Below, in pieces: positions 1,271 to 27,668 of a stretch of DNA of 28,186 nt (its first letter is position 1; each line of letters starts with the position of its first letter). Both the position numbers and the translations under genes were made by a program. The stretch is taken from the IMG/VR virus record IMGVR_UViG_3300035698_018106, positions 294,717 through 322,902 of that record; one strand, 5' to 3'. The stretch is from a virus. Under the pieces are notes generated by a model. It had not been told where the DNA came from, did no database searches, and saw nothing but the letters and a program-made list of their open reading frames with translations.

Positions 1271-1972
1271 TTAAATTTTAGTCTTTGGTATAAAATCTAA
1301 GATTAATCCAATATTAGCCATATTTGTTATATTCATATTTAATTCTCCTTCTTTAAGAATTTTTCTTAAATGTGTCACAAATACATCTAATGATCTACTT
1401 ACAAAATAATTAGATGTTTGCCACACTTTTTCTAATATGATATCTTTTTTAACTACTGTTGAGAAATTAGCAGCTAATAATTCAAATACACTAGCTTGTT
1501 TAGGCGATAATTGTTTAATAAGTATACCATTTTTAGATATAAGTCGTTTTGTTGGATCATATGTACAATCTCCAAATTCTATAATATCTCCCATCTTCGC
1601 TGTTAATCTAGCAAGTATTTCGAAATTATTATGATACATATATACATTATGTAACATAACACTTGCTAAATAATCTGTATCTGTTTCTTTAGTATAAGGA
1701 ATAATCATATCTGCAGATGATTTCTCATATTTTTCTAATCTAGATATTACAATTACTGGTATATAGTTGTAATATTTTTTTATAAATTCTATAACTTTAG
1801 GCGCATATTCTAAATCTCCATTTATTATATAGGCATCTGCTTTTTCATTGTCAATGGTATCCAATAAGGTTTTTTCAAATTTAACTATAGATATAGTATG
1901 ATTATCCTTTTTGGCTCCTCTAATGATAGAATTAAGAATTTTGTAATTTCCAGAGTTAACGGCTATTTTCAT
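1271..1972 (-). CDS. atypical OmpR/PhoB-family response-regulator-like transcription factor (winged-helix trans_reg_C domain plus a degenerate receiver-like N-domain)
   Basis: C-terminal 100 aa align position-by-position with the OmpR DNA-binding domain (FG...L..LSPKQASVFELLAAN....V.KD.ILEKVW.....S.RSLDVFVTHLRKIL.....I.....GL.LDF). The N-domain keeps the receiver S/T and K but replaces the acidic pocket (KILVVDDD becomes KIAVNSGN). Confidence 0.8.
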   Translation of the reverse strand: MKIAVNSGNYKILNSIIRGAKKDNHTISIVKFEKTLLDTIDNEKADAYIINGDLEYAPKVIEFIKKYYNYIPVIVISRLEKYEKSSADMIIPYTKETDTDYLASVMLHNVYMYHNNFEILARLTAKMGDIIEFGDCTYDPTKRLISKNGILIKQLSPKQASVFELLAANFSTVVKKDIILEKVWQTSNYFVSRSLDVFVTHLRKILKEGELNMNITNMANIGLILDFIPKTKI

Positions 1973-1989
1973 AAGGGTAATATTATATT

Positions 1990-2066
1990 AAGAATTGGTT
2001 AAATTAACCAATTAAATCATCAATTAAAAGCTTTTCAATAAAATAATTGTTAAGATTTTGTTAAAA
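1990..2066 (-). promoter_or_regulatory. promoter/operator of the OmpR-like regulator gene: 21-bp perfect palindrome AATTGGTTAAATTAACCAATT plus TGTTAA-N5-TGTTAA
   Basis: palindrome at 1993-2013 holds the cassette core element AACCAA(T/A) in both orientations; TGTTAA copies at 2048 and 2059. Confidence 0.4.
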
Positions 2067-2078
2067 ACTATTTATTCA

Positions 2079-4554: not shown

Positions 4555-4618
4555 GATTAAATATATCCAATTTAATTGAAACAGAAAAATAATTCTTAAT
4601 ATATTTTAACATTATTTA
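4555..4618 (-). promoter_or_regulatory. degenerate copy of the promoter cassette
   Basis: TAAATATATCCAATTTAATTGAAACAGAAAAATAATTCTTAATATATTTTAACATTATTT upstream of 4270-4527. Confidence 0.3.
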
Positions 4619-5351: not shown

Positions 5352-5385
5352 AACTAAAAAAGTCGAGACTAAAAAATCTCGGCTT
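5352..5385 (-). terminator. intrinsic-terminator-like hairpin + T-run (minus sense AAGCCGAGA-loop-TCTCGACTT then TTTTTTAGTTA)
   Basis: 9-bp stem with one mismatch, 9 nt after the NTase gene stop; run of 6 T in the gene sense. Confidence 0.5.
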
Positions 5386-7490: not shown

Positions 7491-7552
7491 TAAGTAAATA
7501 TAACCATTTACATCAACAGTAAAAAATTTTAAATGTTAAAAAATGTTAATTA
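7491..7552 (-). promoter_or_regulatory. promoter cassette copy a (core + TGTTAA direct repeat)
   Basis: TAAATATAACCATTTAC...AAATGTTAAAAAATGTTAA; about 20 nt upstream of ATG 7472. Confidence 0.5.
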
Positions 7553-9603: not shown

Positions 9604-10104
9604 TTAAAATGAATAATCATAATATTCTTGTTTAACACCAAATATGATATTTACTGTTGTCCATTCAATTTTAAGTTTTGTTAAACCTTCAATTAAAGAA
9701 TTAATAAATACCCCATTATATACTCCTCCTGCCTTACTGAATGCTTCATTTAGTAATTTACCATGATTTCCATATTTTTTATGAGCTTCATCAGTGAATG
9801 TAAATCCTACATGTTTCTTTTTCCACGAACCCCATTTATAATAAAGTGTAATTGTTCCTTCAATAAGTTCATTATATTCATAAGACTGTTGATCACTCAT
9901 ACCTAATTTGTCAACTCTTTTTGGGTGGTATCGTTGAATAACAACAGATTTTGATTTTTCATTTACATCAATAACTTCATATGCATGTCTATCAGAATGA
10001 AACAACATAGTAGCTCCTTTACCAATTTCTGGAATGGTTTGATTATTGCCCATCATCCAATTAACTAAAGAACCTGTTGTATTAAAAGTTAATGATTGCT
10101 TCAT
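9604..10104 (-). CDS. hypothetical protein (166 aa from Met-14; the track ATG at 10143 lies inside the promoter core)
   Basis: the 10143 ATG is the ATGG of the conserved core ATTTGGTTATATTTA; the next ATG (10102-10104) restores the usual core-to-ATG spacing. Confidence 0.45.
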   Translation of the reverse strand: MKQSLTFNTTGSLVNWMMGNNQTIPEIGKGATMLFHSDRHAYEVIDVNEKSKSVVIQRYHPKRVDKLGMSDQQSYEYNELIEGTITLYYKWGSWKKKHVGFTFTDEAHKKYGNHGKLLNEAFSKAGGVYNGVFINSLIEGLTKLKIEWTTVNIIFGVKQEYYDYSF

Positions 10105-10120
10105 ATTTTTATTTTTAAAT

Positions 10121-10190
10121 TTATAATAGTTAAATATAACCATTTACTATAAGAGTAAAAAATCTGAAATGTTAATAAATGTTAAAATTA
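10121..10190 (-). promoter_or_regulatory. promoter cassette copy b
   Basis: TAAATATAACCATTTACTATAAGAGTAAAAAATCTGAAATGTTAATAAATGTTAAAA. Confidence 0.5.
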
Positions 10191-10196
10191 ATTTAA

Positions 10197-10228
10197 CTAA
10201 AAAATCGACTATCTCTAGAGATAGTCGA
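10197..10228 (-). terminator. intrinsic-terminator-like hairpin + T-run (24-nt perfect palindrome TCGACTATCTCTAGAGATAGTCGA then TTTTTTAGTTA)
   Basis: 11-bp perfect stem; identical TTTTTTAGTTA tail as the 5352-5385 hairpin; just upstream of cassette b. Confidence 0.5.
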
Positions 10229-10339
10229 ATAAAATGTAATAGAAACCTGACTCCTGTAGTTTAAACAGGTTCTTTGTTTCATGATCAATAAAACAACACA
10301 TTGTATTTATATGCTAACATCAGTATTAAATATATCCTA

Positions 10340-10393
10340 TGAACCACTTTAGGATGAGCCGGTTGCCCATCATAAGGACTCGAACCTTCTATA
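10340..10393 (-). other. tRNA-like 3'-half fragment (T-arm GAAGG-TTCGAGT-CCTTA followed by an acceptor-like strand); not a complete tRNA
   Basis: minus-sense GGTTCGAGTCC T-loop consensus; no 5' acceptor/D/anticodon arms could be folded. Confidence 0.25.
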
Positions 10394-10435
10394 AATAACA
10401 AACTTACACTTTTATGGTATGCGCAACCAATATTT

Positions 10436-10606
10436 TTATTCGAAAACATTTAAAATTTTATCCCAAAATGTTTCTTCTGCTTTTAATTCAGCATCTATTT
10501 CTCTATTCATTTCTCCAGATTCAATAGATTCTGAAATTTCATTATGAATATTTTGTGCTATAATTAATCCTTCTTTTGCTTCTTCTAATGAATTAAATGT
10601 AATCAT
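10436..10606 (-). CDS. small acidic helical protein (56 aa, MITFNSLEEAKEGLIIAQNIHNEISES...)
   Basis: hand-translated, below track cutoff; sits in the otherwise empty 10144-10852 gap downstream of cassette c. Confidence 0.35.
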   Translation of the reverse strand: MITFNSLEEAKEGLIIAQNIHNEISESIESGEMNREIDAELKAEETFWDKILNVFE

Positions 10607-10614
10607 AATAATAT

Positions 10615-10764
10615 TTAATTTAATTGTTTAACATCTAATTCATACATTTTTGTATAAAAAATAATTTTATCTTCCTTAGACAATGCATCAATTGCATCTT
10701 TCATAAAATCCATTAAATTTTGACAAGATTTAACTGTCGCGCTTTTAAAATTTCCTAGTTCCAT
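10615..10764 (-). CDS. small protein (49 aa, MELGNFKSATVKSCQNLMDFMKDAIDALSKEDKIIFYTKMYELDVKQLN)
   Basis: hand-translated; the only gene here with a strong SD-like GGAGGAGGAGAT before its ATG. Confidence 0.35.
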   Translation of the reverse strand: MELGNFKSATVKSCQNLMDFMKDAIDALSKEDKIIFYTKMYELDVKQLN

Positions 10765-10790
10765 ATCTCCTCCTCCAATTATTAATAAAT

Positions 10791-10860
10791 TAATTATAGT
10801 ATAAATATAACCATTTACTTTAAGAGTAGAAAATATTAAATGTTAAAAAATGTTAAAATT
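10791..10860 (-). promoter_or_regulatory. promoter cassette copy c
   Basis: ATAAATATAACCATTTACTTTAAGAGTAGAAAATATTAAATGTTAAAAAATGTTAAAA; the stop of 10853-11794 sits inside the second TGTTAA. Confidence 0.5.
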
Positions 10861-11794
10861 CAATTTCTCCTACAATCGTTTTATTGCTCCATCCTCCAAT
10901 ATTAACAATTGAAGTTTCTAACTTACATCTAAAGTTTTCGTTTACAAACTCATATGCCTTGGAATTAATATTTTCTTTTGTATTTGCTAAGTATATACCA
11001 GTATGACTATCTTTTTGTATTATAATATCAGTTTCAACTGGATGAACATAGTGGAATGATAATTCAGGGGATGTTACAGGTATTTGATTGTTTTTATAGT
11101 AAGAAGAATTATAATTGCGATGATTTTTAGATTTATAAATCATTTCTTTAATTATTTCTTTATTATTAAATAGATTTGAATCATCATATAAATCTATTAA
11201 ATCTTTAATTCTTTTATTAGAAATAGGGAAAGATAAAATATCCCATAATTTACCTTCTTTACAAGCAAAAAAAGCACGCCGAGGTGTTTCTAATGTTAGA
11301 TGATAAGTATAATCATGATTGTATTTAACTATAATATTTTTTTGATACCAATTACCAAGATAAACCATTTCTAATCCATCTTTACATTGAGCACCTTTAT
11401 ACCAATGGCCAACTATGGCTTTAGAAATAGGAATAATATCACCCTTTTTATTTTCTAATTCTTCTTCTTTATAAAGAAGATCAATATATTCTGTATCTAA
11501 CGTCCTAATCAATTGCATTTGATGGTCAACAATATTTTCAACAAATGTAATTTCATCTTCAATTACACCATGTGTAATTGATAATCTAGTAAGTGGTAAT
11601 TGATCAAAATCTACCCAAATTTGTCTTGGTAAATATTCATGATCTATTAGAAATCCTAATTTACTATAATCAATAATTTTTAAACCTGCCATTGGTTCAT
11701 TATTAAAAGGTATTGTACCTTTACCACCAGACATTCTAATTCCGCTGCCAATGTAAGCTTTTTTAAGTAATTTTATACTACATGTATTTTCCAT
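10853..11794 (-). CDS. hypothetical protein (313 aa)
   Basis: longest ORF in the window, ATG start, preceded by a type-2 cassette (11798-11835). Confidence 0.55.
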   Translation of the reverse strand: MENTCSIKLLKKAYIGSGIRMSGGKGTIPFNNEPMAGLKIIDYSKLGFLIDHEYLPRQIWVDFDQLPLTRLSITHGVIEDEITFVENIVDHQMQLIRTLDTEYIDLLYKEEELENKKGDIIPISKAIVGHWYKGAQCKDGLEMVYLGNWYQKNIIVKYNHDYTYHLTLETPRRAFFACKEGKLWDILSFPISNKRIKDLIDLYDDSNLFNNKEIIKEMIYKSKNHRNYNSSYYKNNQIPVTSPELSFHYVHPVETDIIIQKDSHTGIYLANTKENINSKAYEFVNENFRCKLETSIVNIGGWSNKTIVGEIEF

Positions 11795-14589: not shown

Positions 14590-14658
14590 TAATTATAGTT
14601 AAATATAACCAAATTTACATTAAGAGAACAATTGCAAATGTTAATAAATGTTAATTGT
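14590..14658 (-). promoter_or_regulatory. promoter cassette copy d
   Basis: TAAATATAACCAAATTTACATTAAGAGAACAATTGCAAATGTTAATAAATGTTAA. Confidence 0.5.
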
Positions 14659-15759: not shown

Positions 15760-15830
15760 ATTTGTAATAGTTAAATATAACCAAATTTACAATACTAGAA
15801 CAATTCTAAATGTTAAAAAATGTTAAACAT
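15760..15830 (-). promoter_or_regulatory. promoter cassette copy e
   Basis: TTAAATATAACCAAATTTACAATACTAGAACAATTCTAAATGTTAAAAAATGTTAAA. Confidence 0.5.
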
Positions 15831-17625: not shown

Positions 17626-17697
17626 TTTTTAATTTAGATAAAAATAACCAATTTTACTTATTAAGAACAATATTAAATGTTAATAAATGTTAAAATG
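17626..17697 (-). promoter_or_regulatory. promoter cassette copy f (core variant AAAAATAACCAATTTTAC)
   Basis: ...TTAAGAACAATATTAAATGTTAATAAATGTTAAAA. Confidence 0.45.
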
Positions 17698-18444: not shown

Positions 18445-18508
18445 AGTTAAGTAAATATATCCAATTTTACTTAATAAGAACAATATTAAATGTTAAAAAA
18501 TGTTAATT
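18445..18508 (-). promoter_or_regulatory. promoter cassette copy g (core variant TAAATATATCCAATTTTAC)
   Basis: ...TAATAAGAACAATATTAAATGTTAAAAAATGTTAA. Confidence 0.45.
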
Positions 18509-19391: not shown

Positions 19392-19455
19392 TAGTTAAAT
19401 ATAACCAAATTTACTATAAGAGAACAATTTTAAATGTTAAAAAATGTTAAAAATT
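19392..19455 (-). promoter_or_regulatory. promoter cassette copy h
   Basis: TTAAATATAACCAAATTTACTATAAGAGAACAATTTTAAATGTTAAAAAATGTTAAAA. Confidence 0.5.
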
Positions 19456-20271
19456 AGTATATTGTTTAAGGGCAGCTTTAATAGTATCCATTGAAAAAGA
19501 CTTTCCATCAATCTCAATACTTGTATCACTTCTATTAACAACTTCTTCTGATGTTATTTTCTTAAATAAACTATTATTAACATAACATATTGTATTTTCA
19601 TTATAATGAAGTGCTAATGCGCAAATATTGTTAGTTTGATTCTTAACATACTTAATTGATGTAGGTGATTGAGTAATAGCTGCCATACAAATTTCTTCAG
19701 ATTGTTGTTTAACATATTGTAACATCTGTCCATTTATCTTTACTGCTACTAAACAAACTTTATCAAAATGTATATGAATATACTTTAATGCCGTAGGTGA
19801 TTGAGTAACTGCAACCATACAAATTCTAAGTGATTGATTTCTAACATATTGTACTGCATTCCCATTTTGTTCAACTGCTGCTAAACATATCTCCTCAGTT
19901 TGCTGATGTACTAAACATAATAGTAATCCATCTTGTTTAACGGCGGCCAAACAATTATCAAGTGTTTGTATAATAACATACTTAAAAGCATTACTATTTT
20001 GTTTAATAGCTTCTAAACAAATCTCTTCAGTTTGTTTCTTTACATATTGTAAAGCATTTGTATCTTTTCTAACAGCTGCTAAACAAATCTCTTCAGTTTG
20101 CTCATCTACAAACGTCAATGCTCCGCTATTCGTCAGAACAGCCATCATAGCCTCTCCACCAGTCAAATCACATTTTGGACCAGCATATATATAATGCTTA
20201 TCTCTATAATTTTTTAAGTGCTTAGGGCAATTTCTATTAAAAGTATCTTGCAAATGAGTTTGTTTTAACAT
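19447..20271 (-). CDS. 22-aa tandem-repeat protein (DUF4116-like), paralog 1
   Basis: about 9 repeats of EQTEEICLAAV[KR]QNG.ALQYVK plus the conserved tail IEIDGKSFSMDTIKAALKQYTNF; its stop lies inside cassette h. Confidence 0.6.
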   Translation of the reverse strand: MLKQTHLQDTFNRNCPKHLKNYRDKHYIYAGPKCDLTGGEAMMAVLTNSGALTFVDEQTEEICLAAVRKDTNALQYVKKQTEEICLEAIKQNSNAFKYVIIQTLDNCLAAVKQDGLLLCLVHQQTEEICLAAVEQNGNAVQYVRNQSLRICMVAVTQSPTALKYIHIHFDKVCLVAVKINGQMLQYVKQQSEEICMAAITQSPTSIKYVKNQTNNICALALHYNENTICYVNNSLFKKITSEEVVNRSDTSIEIDGKSFSMDTIKAALKQYTNF

Positions 20272-20627: not shown

Positions 20628-20698
20628 ATTTTATAATAGTTAAATATAACCAAATTTACTATAAGAGAACAATATTAAATGTTAAAAAATGTTAAAAA
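20628..20698 (-). promoter_or_regulatory. promoter cassette copy i
   Basis: TTAAATATAACCAAATTTACTATAAGAGAACAATATTAAATGTTAAAAAATGTTAAAA (near-identical to h). Confidence 0.5.
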
Positions 20699-21309
20699 CT
20701 AATATATTGCTTAAGTGCAGCTTTAATAGTATCCTTTGAAAAAGTCTTACCATCAATCTCAATCTCATTATTTTCTTCTTTAAACATATCTTCCTTTACA
20801 TATTGTAATGCACGCACATCTTGTTTAACAGCTTCTAAACATATCTCTTCAGTTTGCTCATTAACATAACGTAAAGCATGACCATTTTGTCTAACAGCTT
20901 TTAAACATATCTCTGGAGTTTGTTCTAATACATATTGTAATACAAATCCATTTTGTTTAATTGCTACTAAACACATCTCTTCAGTTTGCTCTTTTACATA
21001 TTGTAATGCATCCCCATCTTGTTTAACTGCTTCTAAACATATCGCTTCAGTTTGCTCTTTAACATAACGTAATGCATGACCATTTTGTTTAACTCCTGCT
21101 AAACATATCTCTGGTGTTTGCACCCTTACATACTGTAATGCATGACCTTTTTGTCTAACTGCTTCTAAACATATCTTTTCAGTTTGCTCATTAACATAAT
21201 GTAATACATAACCATCTTCTCTAACAGCTTCTAACGCTGCATCACCAGTTAAATTACATTTATCTTCTAACTTATCATAATCACTTTTATAATCTTTCAA
21301 ATCTTTCAT
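20692..21309 (-). CDS. 22-aa tandem-repeat protein (DUF4116-like), paralog 2 (start at MKDLKDYKSDYDKL; the track's 21333 start is a TTG)
   Basis: about 8 repeats and the tail IEIDGKTFSKDTIKAALKQYISF; the N-terminus matches paralog 3; its stop lies inside cassette i. Confidence 0.6.
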   Translation of the reverse strand: MKDLKDYKSDYDKLEDKCNLTGDAALEAVREDGYVLHYVNEQTEKICLEAVRQKGHALQYVRVQTPEICLAGVKQNGHALRYVKEQTEAICLEAVKQDGDALQYVKEQTEEMCLVAIKQNGFVLQYVLEQTPEICLKAVRQNGHALRYVNEQTEEICLEAVKQDVRALQYVKEDMFKEENNEIEIDGKTFSKDTIKAALKQYISF

Positions 21310-21360
21310 TATCCTTTTTTTCATTATATTCAAATATATCTATAATCTATCACAATATAA

Positions 21361-21387
21361 AATCTAAAATGTTAAAAGATGTTATAG
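21361..21387 (-). promoter_or_regulatory. partial cassette (direct repeat only, core replaced)
   Basis: AAAATGTTAAAAGATGTTATAG upstream of paralog 2; abuts the G-free island arm. Confidence 0.3.
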
Positions 21388-21603
21388 ATATCTCTTTACT
21401 CATCTCGTACACCCACTCTAACACCCTCTCAATCTCTCACTCTTCTACTTATATTACTACATCTCACTCTATATCATTCACTGTATTTCACTAAACTAAC
21501 TCTTCTAACTCCCTTACCCTCTCTCACATATTCCCTAACCTCGCGAGCTTCCCTACATTATCACAATAATTATTTTTATAATATAACATATAATATAAAC
21601 TAT

Positions 21604-21825
21604 CTAATAAATCTCTTCAAACTTACACTCTAATACAACATCAGAACTCTTTAAAAACTCTCTCATCTTATCATAACTATAAGATATCTTATATACAACT
21701 CTATTCATACCCTTACTTGCAATAAACCCTATAGTACACATCTTCTCAGGATCCCAATCATAATATCTCTCTATCAAACATCCATCTATCACTAACATAC
21801 TATCATTATACTCTATTATCTTCAT
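21604..21825 (-). CDS. small hypothetical protein in the G-depleted island arm
   Basis: 73 aa ORF with ATG start; its coding strand is C-poor. Confidence 0.35.
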   Translation of the reverse strand: MKIIEYNDSMLVIDGCLIERYYDWDPEKMCTIGFIASKGMNRVVYKISYSYDKMREFLKSSDVVLECKFEEIY

Positions 21826-22056
21826 AACCTTAAATTTTTTTATATTTTCTATATCTCTTTAATATTAATAATATATACAAATCACAAATAAATTCTAAAC
21901 AAATCACAAACAAATCCCTACAAAGTAATCCTGTCAGGGCTCAAACCTAATCAATCAAAACGGCGCGCCTCTATCTCGAAACTGCTGTCACCTTGAGATA
22001 GTTACAGATATATAATTTCGAGTATAAGATTCTCCCTGTTTCGCCCTGAGACATAT

Positions 22057-22077
22057 AATGTAACATATGTTACAAAA
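22057..22077. repeat. 21-bp element AATGTAACATATGTTACAAAA containing a 16-bp perfect palindrome, copy 1
   Basis: exact repeat of 22112-22132. Confidence 0.6.
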
Positions 22078-22111
22078 TTTACCTTATACGAACTGTGGGA
22101 ATGGTATTAAG

Positions 22112-22132
22112 AATGTAACATATGTTACAAAA
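22112..22132. repeat. 21-bp element AATGTAACATATGTTACAAAA, copy 2 (overlaps the stop codon of 22125-22379)
   Basis: exact repeat of 22057-22077, 55 bp apart. Confidence 0.6.
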
Positions 22133-22379
22133 AGTTGATAAGAACCATATTATCTTTAGGAACTGAGTAGATTTCAATTGTATTAGAAAGAAGTTTGCAA
22201 TCAAGGATTCGGTATATGAGAGTAAAGTATTTTTGAGGGACTGTTATTTCCATTGTAGAGTAAGTAGTCCAGCATATATCGATATCTGATTTGTTTATGA
22301 ACTCGTTAGTATTTTGATATACCAGATTAATGAGTTCATTTTGCAAGTTCATTATATTATTGATATCTTTGTAGTCCAT
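22125..22379 (-). CDS. hypothetical protein in the C-depleted island arm (84 aa from MDYKD; the track's 22469 start is a TTG inside the promoter core)
   Basis: the track start is the TTG of ATTTGGTTATATTT; the first ATG is 22377-22379; the stop overlaps a 16-bp perfect palindrome. Confidence 0.35.
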   Translation of the reverse strand: MDYKDINNIMNLQNELINLVYQNTNEFINKSDIDICWTTYSTMEITVPQKYFTLIYRILDCKLLSNTIEIYSVPKDNMVLINFL

Positions 22380-22454
22380 TAGTTGGTGGATTATTTTTTC
22401 ATTTTGATTATTTAGATTAATACTGAGATTAAATGTTTTATTTTTATTAGTCAG

Positions 22455-22490
22455 TATAAATATAACCAAAATAATATAGTTAGGGCAATT
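22455..22490 (-). promoter_or_regulatory. core-only cassette variant (type-2-like)
   Basis: AAATATAACCAAAATAATATAGTTAGGGCAA upstream of 22125-22379. Confidence 0.3.
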
Positions 22491-23094
22491 AATGTGTGAT
22501 TAAATTAGATTTAATTTTATTTAGTTGTTTTAAAGTTATAGTTTTTGCGTTAGCTGTATATTCTTTGCGTATTAATATTTTTTGAGATTCTGGAAGTGTG
22601 TGATATGTTTCGCGTACACCGTGGTGGTATTTAACTATAGTAGATTCTTTCCACATAGTAGCTTTGAGGATATTATAGTATAGAGTTGAGATTATTTTCT
22701 TTTCAATTTTTGATAGGTTATATATTTGGTGTGTATTGCTCCATTTAACTAGTTTTTTATATGATAGAGGGAATTTATATTTTTCAAGTAGGTAGTTGAT
22801 AGTATGTGTGTGTGTAGTAAAGAAAGATATAGTATTGAGTTTTCTTGATTTGTTTCTTTGATTGTTGTATTTAGATTGGAGTTGTATATATTTTTCTTTA
22901 TTATTTTTTATATAGGTTTTAGTATAAGCTGCATCTTTAGCTTTATTGAGAGGGTTTGTTCTTCTTTTTTTAGTTTGTTCTTTGCTACAAAGTGAGCATC
23001 GAATTATATCTTTTTTTCCATAGTTGTAGATGTTATGGATAGTAATTACATTATGTTCAGAACAAAATTTAGATATTGTATTTATTTTAGCCAC
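22489..23094 (-). CDS. hypothetical Cys-cluster protein (N-terminal CSEHN...RCSLC), GTG start
   Basis: 201 aa ORF with GTG start (cac 23092-23094) and no in-frame ATG for about 150 codons; plus strand is almost C-free here. Confidence 0.4.
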   Translation of the reverse strand: MAKINTISKFCSEHNVITIHNIYNYGKKDIIRCSLCSKEQTKKRRTNPLNKAKDAAYTKTYIKNNKEKYIQLQSKYNNQRNKSRKLNTISFFTTHTHTINYLLEKYKFPLSYKKLVKWSNTHQIYNLSKIEKKIISTLYYNILKATMWKESTIVKYHHGVRETYHTLPESQKILIRKEYTANAKTITLKQLNKIKSNLITH

Positions 23095-23210
23095 AATTAA
23101 TTATTTAGAGGGTGCACGACTGATTAAATTTAGTATTAAAGATATAAGATAATATGTATATGATATATGAGTTGAAGAGATGATTGATAGAGTGATTGAG
23201 AGATATGATA

Positions 23211-23420
23211 TTAGTTAGTAGGTTGTTCCCAATCGATAGTACCTGTGATTACGAATTCTGTTTGGCAGTTATCGCAAGTCATTTCGGCGTAAGTTGTAGT
23301 ATCAAGAGAGTACATTGATTTGGTATCTTGTATAGATTTGTTTGTATTAGGGTTAGGTAGATAGATTGATGGGTTACCTGTTGCTCTTGTTTTGGTTGAA
23401 TTACAGTTTGGACATTTCAT
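23211..23420 (-). CDS. small zinc-ribbon protein
   Basis: CPNC...CDNC pairs; 69 aa. Confidence 0.4.
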   Translation of the reverse strand: MKCPNCNSTKTRATGNPSIYLPNPNTNKSIQDTKSMYSLDTTTYAEMTCDNCQTEFVITGTIDWEQPTN

Positions 23421-23532
23421 AGTAGTTTATAATATATATTTATAATTTAAGTGACACTGAGTTGAGTGTTAAATGAATGTTATAGTAATATACATAAAAC
23501 ATTGGAATAACACTCAGATAACATTCGAGTGA

Positions 23533-23718
23533 TTAGTCGATGTAGTAAGTAACTGTTGTTTCAGAGATAACATTGAAATGTTTTCTACAATGAGGGCATT
23601 GAACTAGTTCAGTAAAATCTTTGATGTTATCTTGTTTGATAGTTATGCCGCCTTGACAGTGTTTGCAATAGAGGTCAAGAGTTTCATCAGATTTAGATTT
23701 AGAAAGGATGAGGTTCAT
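23533..23718 (-). CDS. small zinc-ribbon protein
   Basis: CKHC...CPHC pairs; 61 aa. Confidence 0.4.
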   Translation of the reverse strand: MNLILSKSKSDETLDLYCKHCQGGITIKQDNIKDFTELVQCPHCRKHFNVISETTVTYYID

Positions 23719-23723
23719 ATATT

Positions 23724-24248
23724 TTAGTTTTTAAGTTTAAATATTGTTTCATCGATATCAACAGATACAACTTCAAGACCTAGCATATTGACAATACATG
23801 AGTAGTATTTAGGTCTTCTAACAAAATCAACAAGAGCTTCATTATGTTCAGAACAGAATCCATGGAATATATTAACGAATCCTAGGAAGATATCATGATG
23901 AGGATCGAGTTGATGATCATTTCTGATATCAGAAAGCATGTTTAATACTTTAGTTTCTATATTAATTTTGCGTTCCGGATTAATATTGTTTAATGTAAAT
24001 ACATGTGATATAGTAATATGATTATAGTTAACATTGGCCATAGAATAAGACTCTATATTTTCAAGAGATTCTCCGTTATAGAGTTTAAAGTAAGCTCTAC
24101 AGTAGAGGTTATCTTCTAATTTATAGATTTTATGAGATACCCCATTATAGTGTGCAGTGCAATTAGGGTATAGATGTTTAAGATATCTAACAGTTTTACA
24201 ATCTCTTAATTCTTTAGAGATAATTATATTGATTTCTATTTCTTTCAT
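23724..24248 (-). CDS. hypothetical protein (174 aa)
   Basis: first gene after degenerate cassette k (AGTTAA-N4-AGTTAA). Confidence 0.45.
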   Translation of the reverse strand: MKEIEINIIISKELRDCKTVRYLKHLYPNCTAHYNGVSHKIYKLEDNLYCRAYFKLYNGESLENIESYSMANVNYNHITISHVFTLNNINPERKINIETKVLNMLSDIRNDHQLDPHHDIFLGFVNIFHGFCSEHNEALVDFVRRPKYYSCIVNMLGLEVVSVDIDETIFKLKN

Positions 24249-24267: not shown

Positions 24268-24326
24268 GTAAATATAATTAATATTACTATAACAGAAAAA
24301 TATTAAAAGTTAAATAAAGTTAAAAT
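24268..24326 (-). promoter_or_regulatory. degenerate cassette k (AGTTAA-N4-AGTTAA)
   Basis: AAATATAATTAATATTACTATAACAGAAAAATATTAAAAGTTAAATAAAGTTAAAA. Confidence 0.35.
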
Positions 24327-25294
24327 GATTTATTTACATCTATTTTTCTTTCAAAAGATAGTAAAGCGTTTTTAATATATTCATGAGGATATTCATTACC
24401 TTCGAAAATAATAGCAGATTGTTTTGGGAACATGTAATTATTAACATACATTAATGCTTTTATGTTTTGTTTAACAGCTCCTAAACATATCTCTTCAGTT
24501 TGTTCTTTAACATAACGTAATGTTTCTCCATCTTGTTTAACAGCAGCTAAACATATCTCTTCAGTTTGCTCTAATATATATTGTAATGTATTACCATTTT
24601 GTTTAACAGCTCTTAAACACATCTCTTCAGTTTGCTCATTAACAAATTGAAATGCATTACCATTTTGTTTAACTGCTTCTAAACATATTTCTTCAGTTTG
24701 CTTCTTAACATAACGTAATGCATAACCATTCTTTCTAACAGCAGCTAAACATATCTCTGGAGTTTGCTCATTTACAAAACGTAATGCATAACCATTCTTT
24801 CTAACAGCTTCCATACACATCTCCTCAGTTTGCTCAATTTGCTCATTAACATATTTTAATGCATAACCATTCTTTCTAACAGCTTCTAAACAAATCTCCT
24901 CAGTTTGCTCTTTAACATAGTATAATACAAATCCATGTTGTCTAACTACTTCTAAACATATCTTTTCAGTTTGTTCTTTAACAAATTGAAATGCATTACC
25001 AATTTCTTTAACTGCTTCTAAACATATCTCTTCAGTTTGTTCTTTAACATATTGTAATGCTAAACCATTCTTTCTAACAGCTTCCATACACATCTCCTCA
25101 GTTTGCTCATTTACAAAACGTAATGCTTCATTATGTTGTTTAACAGCTGCTAAACAAATCTCTGGAGTTTGTTCCTTAACAAATTGTAATGCGTTACCAT
25201 CTTGTTTAACAGCTTCTAACGCTTCTTCACCAGTTAAATTACACTTGTTCTTTAACTTATCATACTTACATTTATAATCTTTCAAATCTTTCAT
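24320..25294 (-). CDS. 22-aa tandem-repeat protein (DUF4116-like), paralog 3, longest (324 aa)
   Basis: about 12 repeats; divergent C-terminal tail; its stop lies inside cassette k; preceded by cassette l. Confidence 0.6.
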   Translation of the reverse strand: MKDLKDYKCKYDKLKNKCNLTGEEALEAVKQDGNALQFVKEQTPEICLAAVKQHNEALRFVNEQTEEMCMEAVRKNGLALQYVKEQTEEICLEAVKEIGNAFQFVKEQTEKICLEVVRQHGFVLYYVKEQTEEICLEAVRKNGYALKYVNEQIEQTEEMCMEAVRKNGYALRFVNEQTPEICLAAVRKNGYALRYVKKQTEEICLEAVKQNGNAFQFVNEQTEEMCLRAVKQNGNTLQYILEQTEEICLAAVKQDGETLRYVKEQTEEICLGAVKQNIKALMYVNNYMFPKQSAIIFEGNEYPHEYIKNALLSFERKIDVNKSF

Positions 25295-25310: not shown

Positions 25311-25380
25311 ATTTATAATAGTTAAATATAACCAAATAGGTTGATAATAAAAAATATTAAATGTTAAAAGATGTTAAAAA
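25311..25380 (-). promoter_or_regulatory. promoter cassette copy l
   Basis: TTAAATATAACCAAATAGG...AAAAAATATTAAATGTTAAAAGATGTTAAAA. Confidence 0.45.
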
Positions 25381-26334: not shown

Positions 26335-26403
26335 ATTTATAATAGTTAAATATAACTAATTTTACTATAAGAGAGCAATGTTAAATGTTAAAAGTTGTTA
26401 AAT
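26335..26403 (-). promoter_or_regulatory. promoter cassette copy m
   Basis: TTAAATATAACTAATTTTACTATAAGAGAGCAATGTTAAATGTTAAAAGTTGTTAAA. Confidence 0.45.
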
Positions 26404-26469: not shown

Positions 26470-26506
26470 ATAAAAAAATCCTATCTAGAGTTACCCAGAT
26501 AGGATT
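26470..26506 (-). terminator. intrinsic-terminator-like hairpin + T-run (AATCCTATCT-loop-AGATAGGATT then TTTTTTT)
   Basis: 10-bp perfect stem 20 nt after the membrane-protein gene stop; 7 T in the gene sense. Confidence 0.5.
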
Positions 26507-26855: not shown

Positions 26856-26890
26856 TTAAAAATAACCAAAAAGATTGGGATAAAAAAGTT
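26856..26890 (-). promoter_or_regulatory. type-2 cassette (core + GGGATAAAAAA)
   Basis: AAAAATAACCAAAAAGATTGGGATAAAAAAGTTT about 40 nt upstream of ATG 26820. Confidence 0.4.
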
Positions 26891-27604: not shown

Positions 27605-27668
27605 AAGATAAATATAACCATTTGCTTTAACAGTAAAAAATATTAAATGTTAAAATATGTTAAATGTT
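27605..27668 (-). promoter_or_regulatory. promoter cassette copy n
   Basis: ATAAATATAACCATTTGCTTTAACAGTAAAAAATATTAAATGTTAAAATATGTTAAA. Confidence 0.45.

Follow-up and report, generated by a model that had tools for sequence, protein, structure and literature searches.

The stretch of DNA analysed here, called the window throughout, is 28,186 nucleotides long and comes from a virus (positions 294,717 to 322,902 of IMG/VR record IMGVR_UViG_3300035698_018106). It encodes a 233-aa protein in which a receiver-like domain is joined to an OmpR-type DNA-binding domain (the regulator), and it contains 14 promoter-like cassettes, each built on a tandem hexamer. The GC content is 26%. The minus strand carries every open reading frame (ORF) of 70 aa or more, and therefore the repeat that an earlier note on this DNA had written as TGTTAA-N4-TGTTAA reads TTAACA-N4-TTAACA in the direction of transcription, an orientation which that note had missed. 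The earlier note had proposed that the regulator is the master regulator of the cassettes. The features at the regulator gene are listed here, with the evidence for each in brackets.

1271..1972, minus strand: gene for the 233-aa pseudo-receiver/OmpR-type winged-helix protein (ORF listing, ATG start, Pfam, AlphaFold2 (AF2) model, Foldseek, homologs)
1601..1972, minus strand: degenerate receiver-like N-terminal domain, aa 1-124 (AF2 secondary structure, family alignment, Pfam)
1274..1600, minus strand: C-terminal winged helix-turn-helix (wHTH) DNA-binding domain, aa 125-233 (Pfam, family alignment, PDB profile search)
1993..2013, no strand assigned: candidate operator, a perfect 21-bp dyad AATTGGTTAA-A-TTAACCAATT over the -7-box-like part of the regulator promoter (palindrome search, sister-phage conservation)
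2048..2064, minus strand: TTAACA-AAATC-TTAACA, with N5 spacing, upstream of the regulator gene (motif search)

On its sequence and its predicted fold, the product of the ORF at 1271-1972 is an OmpR-class DNA-binding protein with a dead receiver. Pfam places Trans_reg_C (PF00486) on aa 154-222 (E = 1.7e-11), and the same domain exceeds the gathering score in 27/27 members of the regulator family tested. When a profile of these 27 members was searched against the PDB, the matches were ArlR, CovR, RstA, KdpE and PhoB, some of them extending into the receiver region. The AF2 model (predicted local distance difference test score, pLDDT, 84.6) consists of a beta-alpha N-domain followed by a winged helix, and Foldseek aligned ~237 columns of it to full-length PrrA, KdpE, CosR, VanR, HP1043, RitR and GlnR. 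These matches bear out the OmpR/PhoB DNA-binding domain assigned in the earlier note. The recognition helix, RSLDVFVTHLR, is almost invariant in the family, whose pattern is RS(L/M)DV(F/Y)(V/I)T(H/Y)LR.

The N-domain of the model has the secondary structure b1-a1-b2-a2-b3-a3-b4-b5-a5, from which alpha4 is absent. In the family alignment, as in the model, N51 stands at the phospho-acceptor position, in 'DAYIINGD'; relatives have S, T, R, G, V or A there, and D or E occurs in 0/27 family members. At the end of beta1 ('VNSGN'), SGN stands where the acidic pair is expected, and that pair is absent. The acidic phospho-acceptor pocket is therefore lost, as had been claimed; the accompanying claim that the conserved S/T and K are retained does not hold. 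S77, at the T/S position, is found in the window regulator and is not conserved across the family, and the structural K-P position of receivers is (I/V)-P in the family. In an alternative hhalign register, K is found in most family members and not in the window regulator. Pfam gave 0 Response_reg matches among family members, with weak pseudo-receiver matches only (OKR_DC_1_N, KaiA_N and FleQ). Having no phosphorylatable receiver, the regulator would work without a kinase. HisKA and HATPase_c domains were found in none of the ten largest ORFs of the window, and the gene lists of the related loci L001-L004 and L277-L280 contain no histidine kinase.

A receiver-like fold joined to an OmpR wHTH is also the layout of HP1043 (HsrA, Helicobacter pylori), CosR (Campylobacter), RitR (Streptococcus) and actinobacterial GlnR, and proteins of the HP1043 group likewise have a degenerate receiver that cannot be phosphorylated. 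They lack a partner kinase, and none is seen near the regulator gene. Foldseek matches the model to this group (2hqr, E = 1.8e-9; CosR 8uvx; RitR 5u8k; GlnR 8hih). The likeness to phosphorylation-independent orphan regulators such as HP1043, drawn in the earlier note, thus stands on the degenerate receiver, the intact wHTH and the match to 2hqr, and the regulator is a phage-borne variant of this known class of atypical OmpR-type regulators. It differs from the HP1043 group in being phage-encoded rather than cellular, in sharing just 13-20% identity with it, and in a far more degenerate receiver, with no Response_reg match and no alpha4 in the model. In HP1043-group proteins alpha4 belongs to the alpha4-beta5-alpha5 dimer face, and its absence from the model makes this usual interface doubtful for the regulator.

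Full-length matches to the regulator are confined to a small family. We found 55 homologs, all metagenomic, at 39-63% identity, and an exhaustive family search returned 56 clusters (50% identity) at E ≤ 1e-10 and 23 at E ≤ 1e-30. Among the best 150 cluster representatives there was no host homolog with a matching pseudo-receiver. The contigs that bear the family reach 140-405 kb and carry phage-type genes (RNA ligase, RNase H, RlaP, NUDIX, Thg1 and 5'-3' exonuclease). Further genes on them, for CHU_C and PorP_SprF proteins, are markers of the type-IX secretion of Bacteroidota, and the promoters of these contigs show the Bacteroidota -7 box TAnnTTTG. Judged by this gene content and these promoters, the regulator family is carried by large Bacteroidota phages. 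When two family members were compared by tblastn with 50,697 phage records, no homolog appeared in any record named for a Bacteroidota host; matches lay in unannotated human-faecal 'Bacteriophage sp.' records, for which the host is not given. At the DNA level, 25 kb of the window had no near-identical match in 50,697 phage records. A stand-alone wHTH homolog without the receiver-like domain lies at 9917-10294 of locus L029 (= L126), on the 360-kb contig IMGVR_UViG_3300009784_000001, as a stop-to-stop frame of 123 codons (~105 aa from the first ATG); TTAACA-N5-TTAACA lies upstream of it, and the other strand carries five TTAACAATTATTAACA cassettes within a distance of 7 kb.

In the window, TGTTAA-N4-TGTTAA occurs in 12 exact copies, all on the plus strand, against 0.07 expected. 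A scan with a position weight matrix (PWM) adds two degenerate cassettes, at 24308 and 21370, which brings the total to the 14 that the earlier note had given as a minimum. Exact cassettes were located by motif and PWM scan and the two degenerate ones by PWM scan, as follows.

7495..7549, minus strand: promoter cassette TTAACA-N4-TTAACA-N31-TATATTTA
10131..10185, minus strand: promoter cassette
10802..10856, minus strand: promoter cassette
14600..14654, minus strand: promoter cassette
15772..15826, minus strand: promoter cassette
17639..17693, minus strand: promoter cassette
18452..18506, minus strand: promoter cassette
19396..19450, minus strand: promoter cassette
20641..20695, minus strand: promoter cassette
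21331..21385, minus strand: degenerate cassette ATAACA-N4-TTAACA
24269..24323, minus strand: degenerate cassette TTAACT-N4-TTAACT
25323..25377, minus strand: promoter cassette
26347..26401, minus strand: promoter cassette
27609..27663, minus strand: promoter cassette

In gene direction the cassette reads TTAACA-N4-TTAACA-N28-GGTTATATTTA, and 14/14 cassettes lie on the coding strand with an ATG 20-45 nt downstream. The Bacteroidota sigma-A consensus has TTTG at -33 and TAnnTTTG at -7 (quoted in PMC7366714). The GGTTATATTTA core is a variant of this -7 box, and the cassette sequence TATATTTA agrees with TAnnTTTG at 7/8 positions. In seven of the window cassettes, ATTG(T/C)TCT puts a TTG 21 nt before the -7 box, and about half of the cassettes have TTG near -33. 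The sigma-A arrangement, with TTG or TTTG at -33 lying 19-21 nt before -7, is found with canonical TAnnTTTG and TTTG in relatives and among the scan matches listed (see below). From its spacing to the -7 box, the repeat would occupy about -59 to -44. A core of the form GG(T/A)TAT(A/T)TTTA also occurs without the repeat, at 4558, 10327, 22457 and 26857, which indicates that the repeat is a modular upstream element. TTAACA was considered as the -35 element of a sigma factor and rejected, because the distance of 31 nt between the second hexamer and the -7 box is too great for it.

The cassettes form two subclasses of identical overall length. In one of them, at 7519-7527, 10155-10163 and 27633-27641 of the window (minus strand), the -33 region carries ATTTT(T/C)TAC(T) instead of ATTGTTCT; the same variant is found at L003 1970, at L026 8527, and at 162714 and 177993 of the record of MA9V-2, a distantly related, cultured phage. 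A second promoter class, TTTTTTATCCCAA-N8-GGTTAT(A/T)TTT, combines the same core with another upstream element and occurs at 26857-26887 of the window (minus strand) and at ~3438 of L003.

The spacing of TTAACA pairs was examined over 455 kb, made up of the window and 23 related, non-redundant loci. Spacers of 4 (n = 37) and 5 (n = 38) dominate this sample, each other spacer from 0 to 30 being found 0-7 times, with ~0.5 expected. Exactly 31 nt downstream of the repeat, TAnnTTT[GA] is found in 24 of the 37 N4 pairs. In the window and its relatives, no non-trivial direct repeat other than TTAACA has a period of 10-11 bp. Phage DNA contains 37 N5 pairs in 426 kb and 34 in 1,025 kb, compared with 1 in 859 kb of sampled host loci. 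In six loci (L006 18838, L008 minus 3624, L009 7277, L011 minus 3706, L023 minus 6657 and L027 7285), TTAACA-N5-TTAACA is followed after ~25 nt by CATA(A/T)AAT(A/T)AGTAC(C/T)TAAG and then by G+C-rich, structured-looking sequence; this element, which has no Rfam match at gathering thresholds, may represent a gene for a phage non-coding RNA whose -10-type box is of another kind. Rfam searches for RNA-like sequences past TTAACA promoters, on 18 host and 7 related phage loci, found only tRNAs and one cobalamin riboswitch elsewhere.

To place the cassettes in a wider context, IMG/VR was scanned with the pattern TTAACA-N4-TTAACA-N31-TAnnTTT. At least 120 viral matches were obtained (L030-L149), on contigs of 5-412 kb with 24-50% GC, and among the viral matches listed a canonical -33 TTTG, which is not in the query, stands 7 nt past the second hexamer. 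A scan of 185,579 bacterial genomes, with a pattern of 22 fixed bases and a chance expectation of at most ~2, likewise gave at least 120 matches (L150-L269), and those listed are nearly all from Bacteroidota. After de-duplication, the matches listed represent 103 distinct viral and 65 distinct bacterial promoters. The architecture TTAACA-N4-TTAACA-N7-TTTG-N20-TAnnTTTG is very widespread in Bacteroidota and their phages.

Among the bacterial matches listed, ~40 by hand count trace to a single chromosomal locus that is syntenic across Prolixibacteraceae, Draconibacterium and Maribellus and sits between a conserved gene and an extracytoplasmic function (ECF)-sigma-like gene on contigs of 0.6-6.5 Mb. 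This locus rules out that all bacterial matches are prophage or mis-binned phage DNA; small contigs labelled Methanosphaera, Patescibacteria and Bacilli probably are such DNA. Other bacterial matches precede Sel1-repeat, PAD_porph, TonB_C and NusG-like genes. The host loci contain too few independent promoters to act as an unbiased promoter sample. Two side observations concern these chromosomal sites. At the Prolixibacteraceae locus there is a transcript-like sequence of ~85 nt, ACGTTTATTTTCATAAGTTTAGGTTTAGTTAGGTTAGTTAGTTTAATGAGAAAAGGATGGGTTGTTGAACCCGTCCTTTTT, with a terminator hairpin at its end and no Rfam match, found in L156, L158, L164 (minus strand, from 55 nt past the site), L168, L176, L203, L205 and ~30 more; it is a candidate small RNA or leader. 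In rumen Bacteroidales metagenome-assembled genomes, a near-identical cassette of ~70 nt, ttcgaatcctTTAACAtcTTTTAACAaattccgTTTGgcggtctcaaaaggaccgcTATCTTTG, stands before unrelated genes (Sel1-repeat, PAD_porph-like and others) in L150, L153, L160, L177, L182, L199, L245, L254 and other loci, and looks like a portable promoter module.

This architecture is not restricted to phages with the regulator. When six-frame ORFs from all 270 loci were searched with a hidden Markov model of the family, the added loci yielded no regulator homolog other than in three pieces of contigs already known to carry one; two Alistipes/Rikenellaceae loci, L181 and L227, have an ordinary OmpR-type gene at ~1.8 kb from the site. 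The site architecture is thus found without a homolog in at least 116 viral loci, at least 120 bacterial loci and two cultured phages with complete genomes. The Chryseobacterium jumbo phage MA9V-2 (218.5 kb) has five TTAAC(A/G)-N5-TTAACA-N31-TAnnTTT promoters, and an OmpR-like ORF is absent from it even at E ≤ 10. At the best promoters of Bacteroides phage B124-14 the repeat is inverted and lies 15 nt upstream of the -33 TTG, and its genome holds no regulator homolog; the inverted orientation also occurs in L105. In the literature we found no paper describing a TTAACA upstream element, which does not settle whether it has been described before.

The region upstream of the regulator gene contains, as the earlier note had described, an N5 repeat (2048-2064) and a 21-bp palindrome (1993-2013). 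The repeat lies one helical turn farther from the GGTTA core than in the cassettes. The palindrome, AATTGGTTAAATTAACCAATT, is perfect (10+1+10); arms of at least 10 arise in 39% of Markov shuffles, so that on its own it is not significant. The dyad becomes a credible operator because it is conserved in sister phages and exclusive to the regulator gene. The regulator promoter of the closest clade (L003, L277, L278 and L280; 58-63% identity) has the form TTAACA-N5-TTAACA-N6-TGTTAA ... TTGGT-N6/7-ACCAA, with the dyad over the -7 box; TTGGT-N6/7-ACCAA is found at the same place in L003, L277 and L280 and with one mismatch in L278. Both the triple element TTAACA-N5-TTAACA-N6-TGTTAA and the TTGGT dyad occur only at the regulator gene in 564 kb. 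More widely, an N5 pair lies upstream of the regulator gene in 15/24 loci, despite differing upstream neighbour genes, and the distances from repeat to -7 box in regulator promoters (31, 41-42 and 52-53 nt) are helically phased. In L005 and L279 the gene is preceded by the TTTTTTATCCCAA-N8-GGTTAT(A/T)TTT class and not by a TTAACA pair. The proposal of an autoregulatory operator is therefore upheld in part: the conserved N5 repeat and the dyad unique to the gene speak for it, and the palindrome by itself does not. Conserved operator-like elements on the regulator's own gene are supported by these comparisons, and they are compatible, circumstantially, with binding of the regulator to TTAAC-type half-sites there and perhaps elsewhere.

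The presence of the architecture where the regulator is absent suggests that the repeat is read by something that the host provides, and with a host component as the reader the cassettes most likely act as promoters for which host RNA polymerase is sufficient. The regulator is probably not the master regulator of the cassettes, given the same architecture at loci without a homolog, on the Prolixibacteraceae chromosome, in MA9V-2 and in B124-14. We favour a reading in two parts, to which we assign a probability of roughly 55%, in which the cassettes are host-read promoters and the phage regulator is separately controlled and probably autorepressed. The cassettes would be sigma-A-type Bacteroidota promoters, composed of the GGTTATATTTA core and a modular TTAACA-N4-TTAACA upstream element, and the tandem, being phylum-wide, would most likely be read by a host component. 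The simplest candidate is a pair of C-terminal domains of the alpha subunit (alpha-CTDs) of host RNA polymerase, bound as on an upstream (UP) element, which would account for a pair of subsites separated by one helical turn at -45 to -60. The geometry that the earlier note had used in favour of the regulator, a direct repeat with a 10-11-bp period, is a valid argument yet fits two alpha-CTDs on a UP-like element equally well. The 14 cassettes would then be strong promoters that fire without any phage protein, probably serving early genes. The regulator would act without a kinase and be expressed from its own promoter of the same general type, with an N5 repeat, and the dyad over the -7 box would most likely serve repression of the regulator gene, probably by the regulator itself.

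Several comparisons accord with this two-part reading. The spacing is fixed, at 31 nt from repeat to -7 box and, among the scan matches listed, at 7 nt to the -33 TTTG. Unlike the sites of an OmpR regulon, TTAACA is phylum-wide and keeps a fixed distance to the core, which is more typical of a basal promoter element. UP elements (E. coli rrnB P1; lytic-phage early promoters) are A/T-rich and bipartite and lie at about -40 to -60 with subsites one turn apart, as do the cassette repeats; they too are modular additions to a core promoter and are enriched in phage promoters. The classical UP consensus, however, consists of A- and T-tracts without a conserved C, whereas the cassette has a defined TTAACA hexamer that is also found inverted. 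'UP elements' have also been assigned to a Bacteroides phage promoter, P_BfP1E6, which reportedly is strongly constitutive in uninfected B. thetaiotaomicron (bioRxiv 10.1101/2025.03.18.644028); the promoter and these elements both reportedly originate with Whitaker et al. 2017. The likeness of this promoter to the cassettes is one of description.

A number of observations weigh against the two-part reading, in particular against alpha-CTDs as the reader. The TTAACA hexamer holds a conserved C/G pair, and the cassette repeat TTAACATTTTTTAACATTTA matches the C1 site of E. coli ompC, TTTACATTTTGAAACATCTA, a pair of tandem 10-bp OmpR half-sites (PMC2586830), at 16/20 positions; both features would fit a wHTH reader better than a minor-groove alpha-CTD. 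The likeness to ompC and ompF extends to the 10-bp period and to a position just upstream of -35/-33, although E. coli OmpR, unlike the window regulator, needs phosphorylation by EnvZ. As the sole tandem motif, the TTAACA pairs are also the only visible candidates if the regulator has tandem sites in phage DNA. A repeat stands at the regulator gene in 15/24 loci, against an average of 2-3 sites per 20 kb, and in the helical phases given above; N5 pairs, common in phage DNA, are almost lacking in the sampled host loci. No rRNA or ribosomal-protein promoters were found among the host matches listed, which is unexpected for a classical UP element. The half-site and the recognition helix are both invariant across the family, so covariation gives no signal either way. 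The assignment of a TTAACA binder is an inference.

Much of this evidence would be accommodated by co-option, in which a host factor reads the tandem in uninfected cells and the regulator recognises the same hexamers, modulates the promoters later and represses its own gene; it might prefer N5 and inverted arrangements and, for example, shut off early promoters. We regard this as a possible but distinctly less probable account. TTAAC-type half-sites are present in all the special elements of the regulator's own promoter (TTAACA-N5-TTAACA-N6-TGTTAA and TTGGTTAA/TTAACCAA), which in 564 kb occur only there; and the absence of any other tandem motif from the phage DNA examined, the enrichment of N5 pairs in phage over host DNA, and the helically phased distances in regulator promoters all point the same way. 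This support is circumstantial throughout. N5 pairs also occur in phages that lack the regulator (L057, L070, L103, MA9V-2 and B124-14), inverted repeats are rarely bound by OmpR-type proteins, and conservation of the own-promoter elements in the closest clade may partly reflect shared descent. As an evolutionary proposal, this would mean that an OmpR-type protein with a pseudo-receiver and no need of a kinase arose in the phage family, able to read the phylum-wide TTAACA host element in direct and inverted form, to take over or shut down UP-type promoters during infection and to autoregulate; stated so fully, we consider it unlikely.

That the regulator binds TTAACA-N4-TTAACA head-to-tail as a required class-I activator, so that the cassettes form a MotA-like middle-gene regulon, appears improbable to us. 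The proposal has the geometry of OmpR/PhoB sites in its favour, tandem hexamers with a 10-11-bp period, of which the HP1043 site, direct hexamer repeats 11 bp apart (TTTAAG-N5-TTTAAG; PMC5253667), is an example. The 16/20 match to ompC C1, a repeat position of about -59 to -44 that suits an upstream activator, the lack of a TTG at -33 in about half of the cassettes and the different build of the regulator's own promoter (N5 plus an extra 10 bp) are consistent with it as well. It is opposed by the identical architecture without the regulator, at loci on bacterial chromosomes, on more than 100 further viral contigs and in both MA9V-2 and B124-14. Moreover, with respect to transcription, the cassettes precede the regulator gene and would drive many small ORFs, an arrangement usual for early genes, which have to be expressed when no phage protein has yet been made. 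With motif and recognition helix both invariant, no covariation links them. In T4, the MotA/AsiA middle promoters combine an early phage protein with a box upstream of a host-type -10 to turn on one class of phage genes, which is the logic that the earlier note had followed, but MotA has an unrelated fold, its box replaces the -35 element and is specific to MotA-encoding phages, whereas TTAACA is shared with hosts and with regulator-less phages.

The least likely account, which we consider very improbable, is that the regulator, being constitutively active, mimics a host OmpR-type response regulator and reprograms host genes instead of phage promoters: a pseudo-receiver would free it from host kinases and a similar recognition helix exists in Bacteroidota (RSMNVFISKLR in Alistipes L181 versus RSLDVFVTHLR), but no host target motif is known and, as noted above, the best 150 cluster representatives include no host homolog with a matching pseudo-receiver.

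Further features of the window touch on the cassettes and their surroundings. Three paralogous DUF4116-repeat proteins are encoded at 24320-25294, 20692-21333 and 19447-20271 (minus strand; Pfam E values from 9e-78 to 3e-29), and the near-identical 3' coding ends and cassettes that follow the last two suggest recent duplication of gene-plus-promoter units. The cassette at 10131-10185 has close upstream of it a perfect 24-bp palindrome, TCGACTATCTCTAGAGATAGTCGA (10205-10228), with a T-run following on the minus (coding) strand. This palindrome is probably an intrinsic terminator and would insulate the promoter that comes next; a hairpin likewise stands before a promoter at ~5355-5385 and ~26470-26500. 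A 16-bp palindrome, TGTAACATATGTTACA, occurs twice, at 22059-22074 and 22114-22129, 55 bp apart within a 299-nt non-coding gap, which is adjoined by a purine-rich non-coding stretch of 270 nt (region 21334-21603). The GC skew changes sign across 22-24 kb, where it is +0.33, and is negative elsewhere in the window. By these features, the 22-24 kb region could be an operator pair, an origin or a regulatory hub. On the window, ARAGORN (tRNA) and Rfam at gathering thresholds found nothing, and neither did a relaxed Rfam search of 10100-10900 and 21300-23750.

If its targets were mapped, the regulator would be the first characterised phage-encoded, phosphorylation-independent OmpR-type regulator and a handle on the timing of transcription in large Bacteroidota phages. 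Abundance of a motif beside a candidate regulator does not make a regulon, and a plausible but probably wrong inference is thereby corrected. Should co-option prove true, a phage transcription factor would be aimed at a basal element of host promoters. Of more interest than the regulator, and perhaps of more consequence, is a by-product, the widespread use of the TTAACA element: if TTAACA-N4/5-TTAACA is the Bacteroidota equivalent of the UP element, it would be useful for promoter prediction and as a source of strong expression parts in Bacteroides and Flavobacteria.

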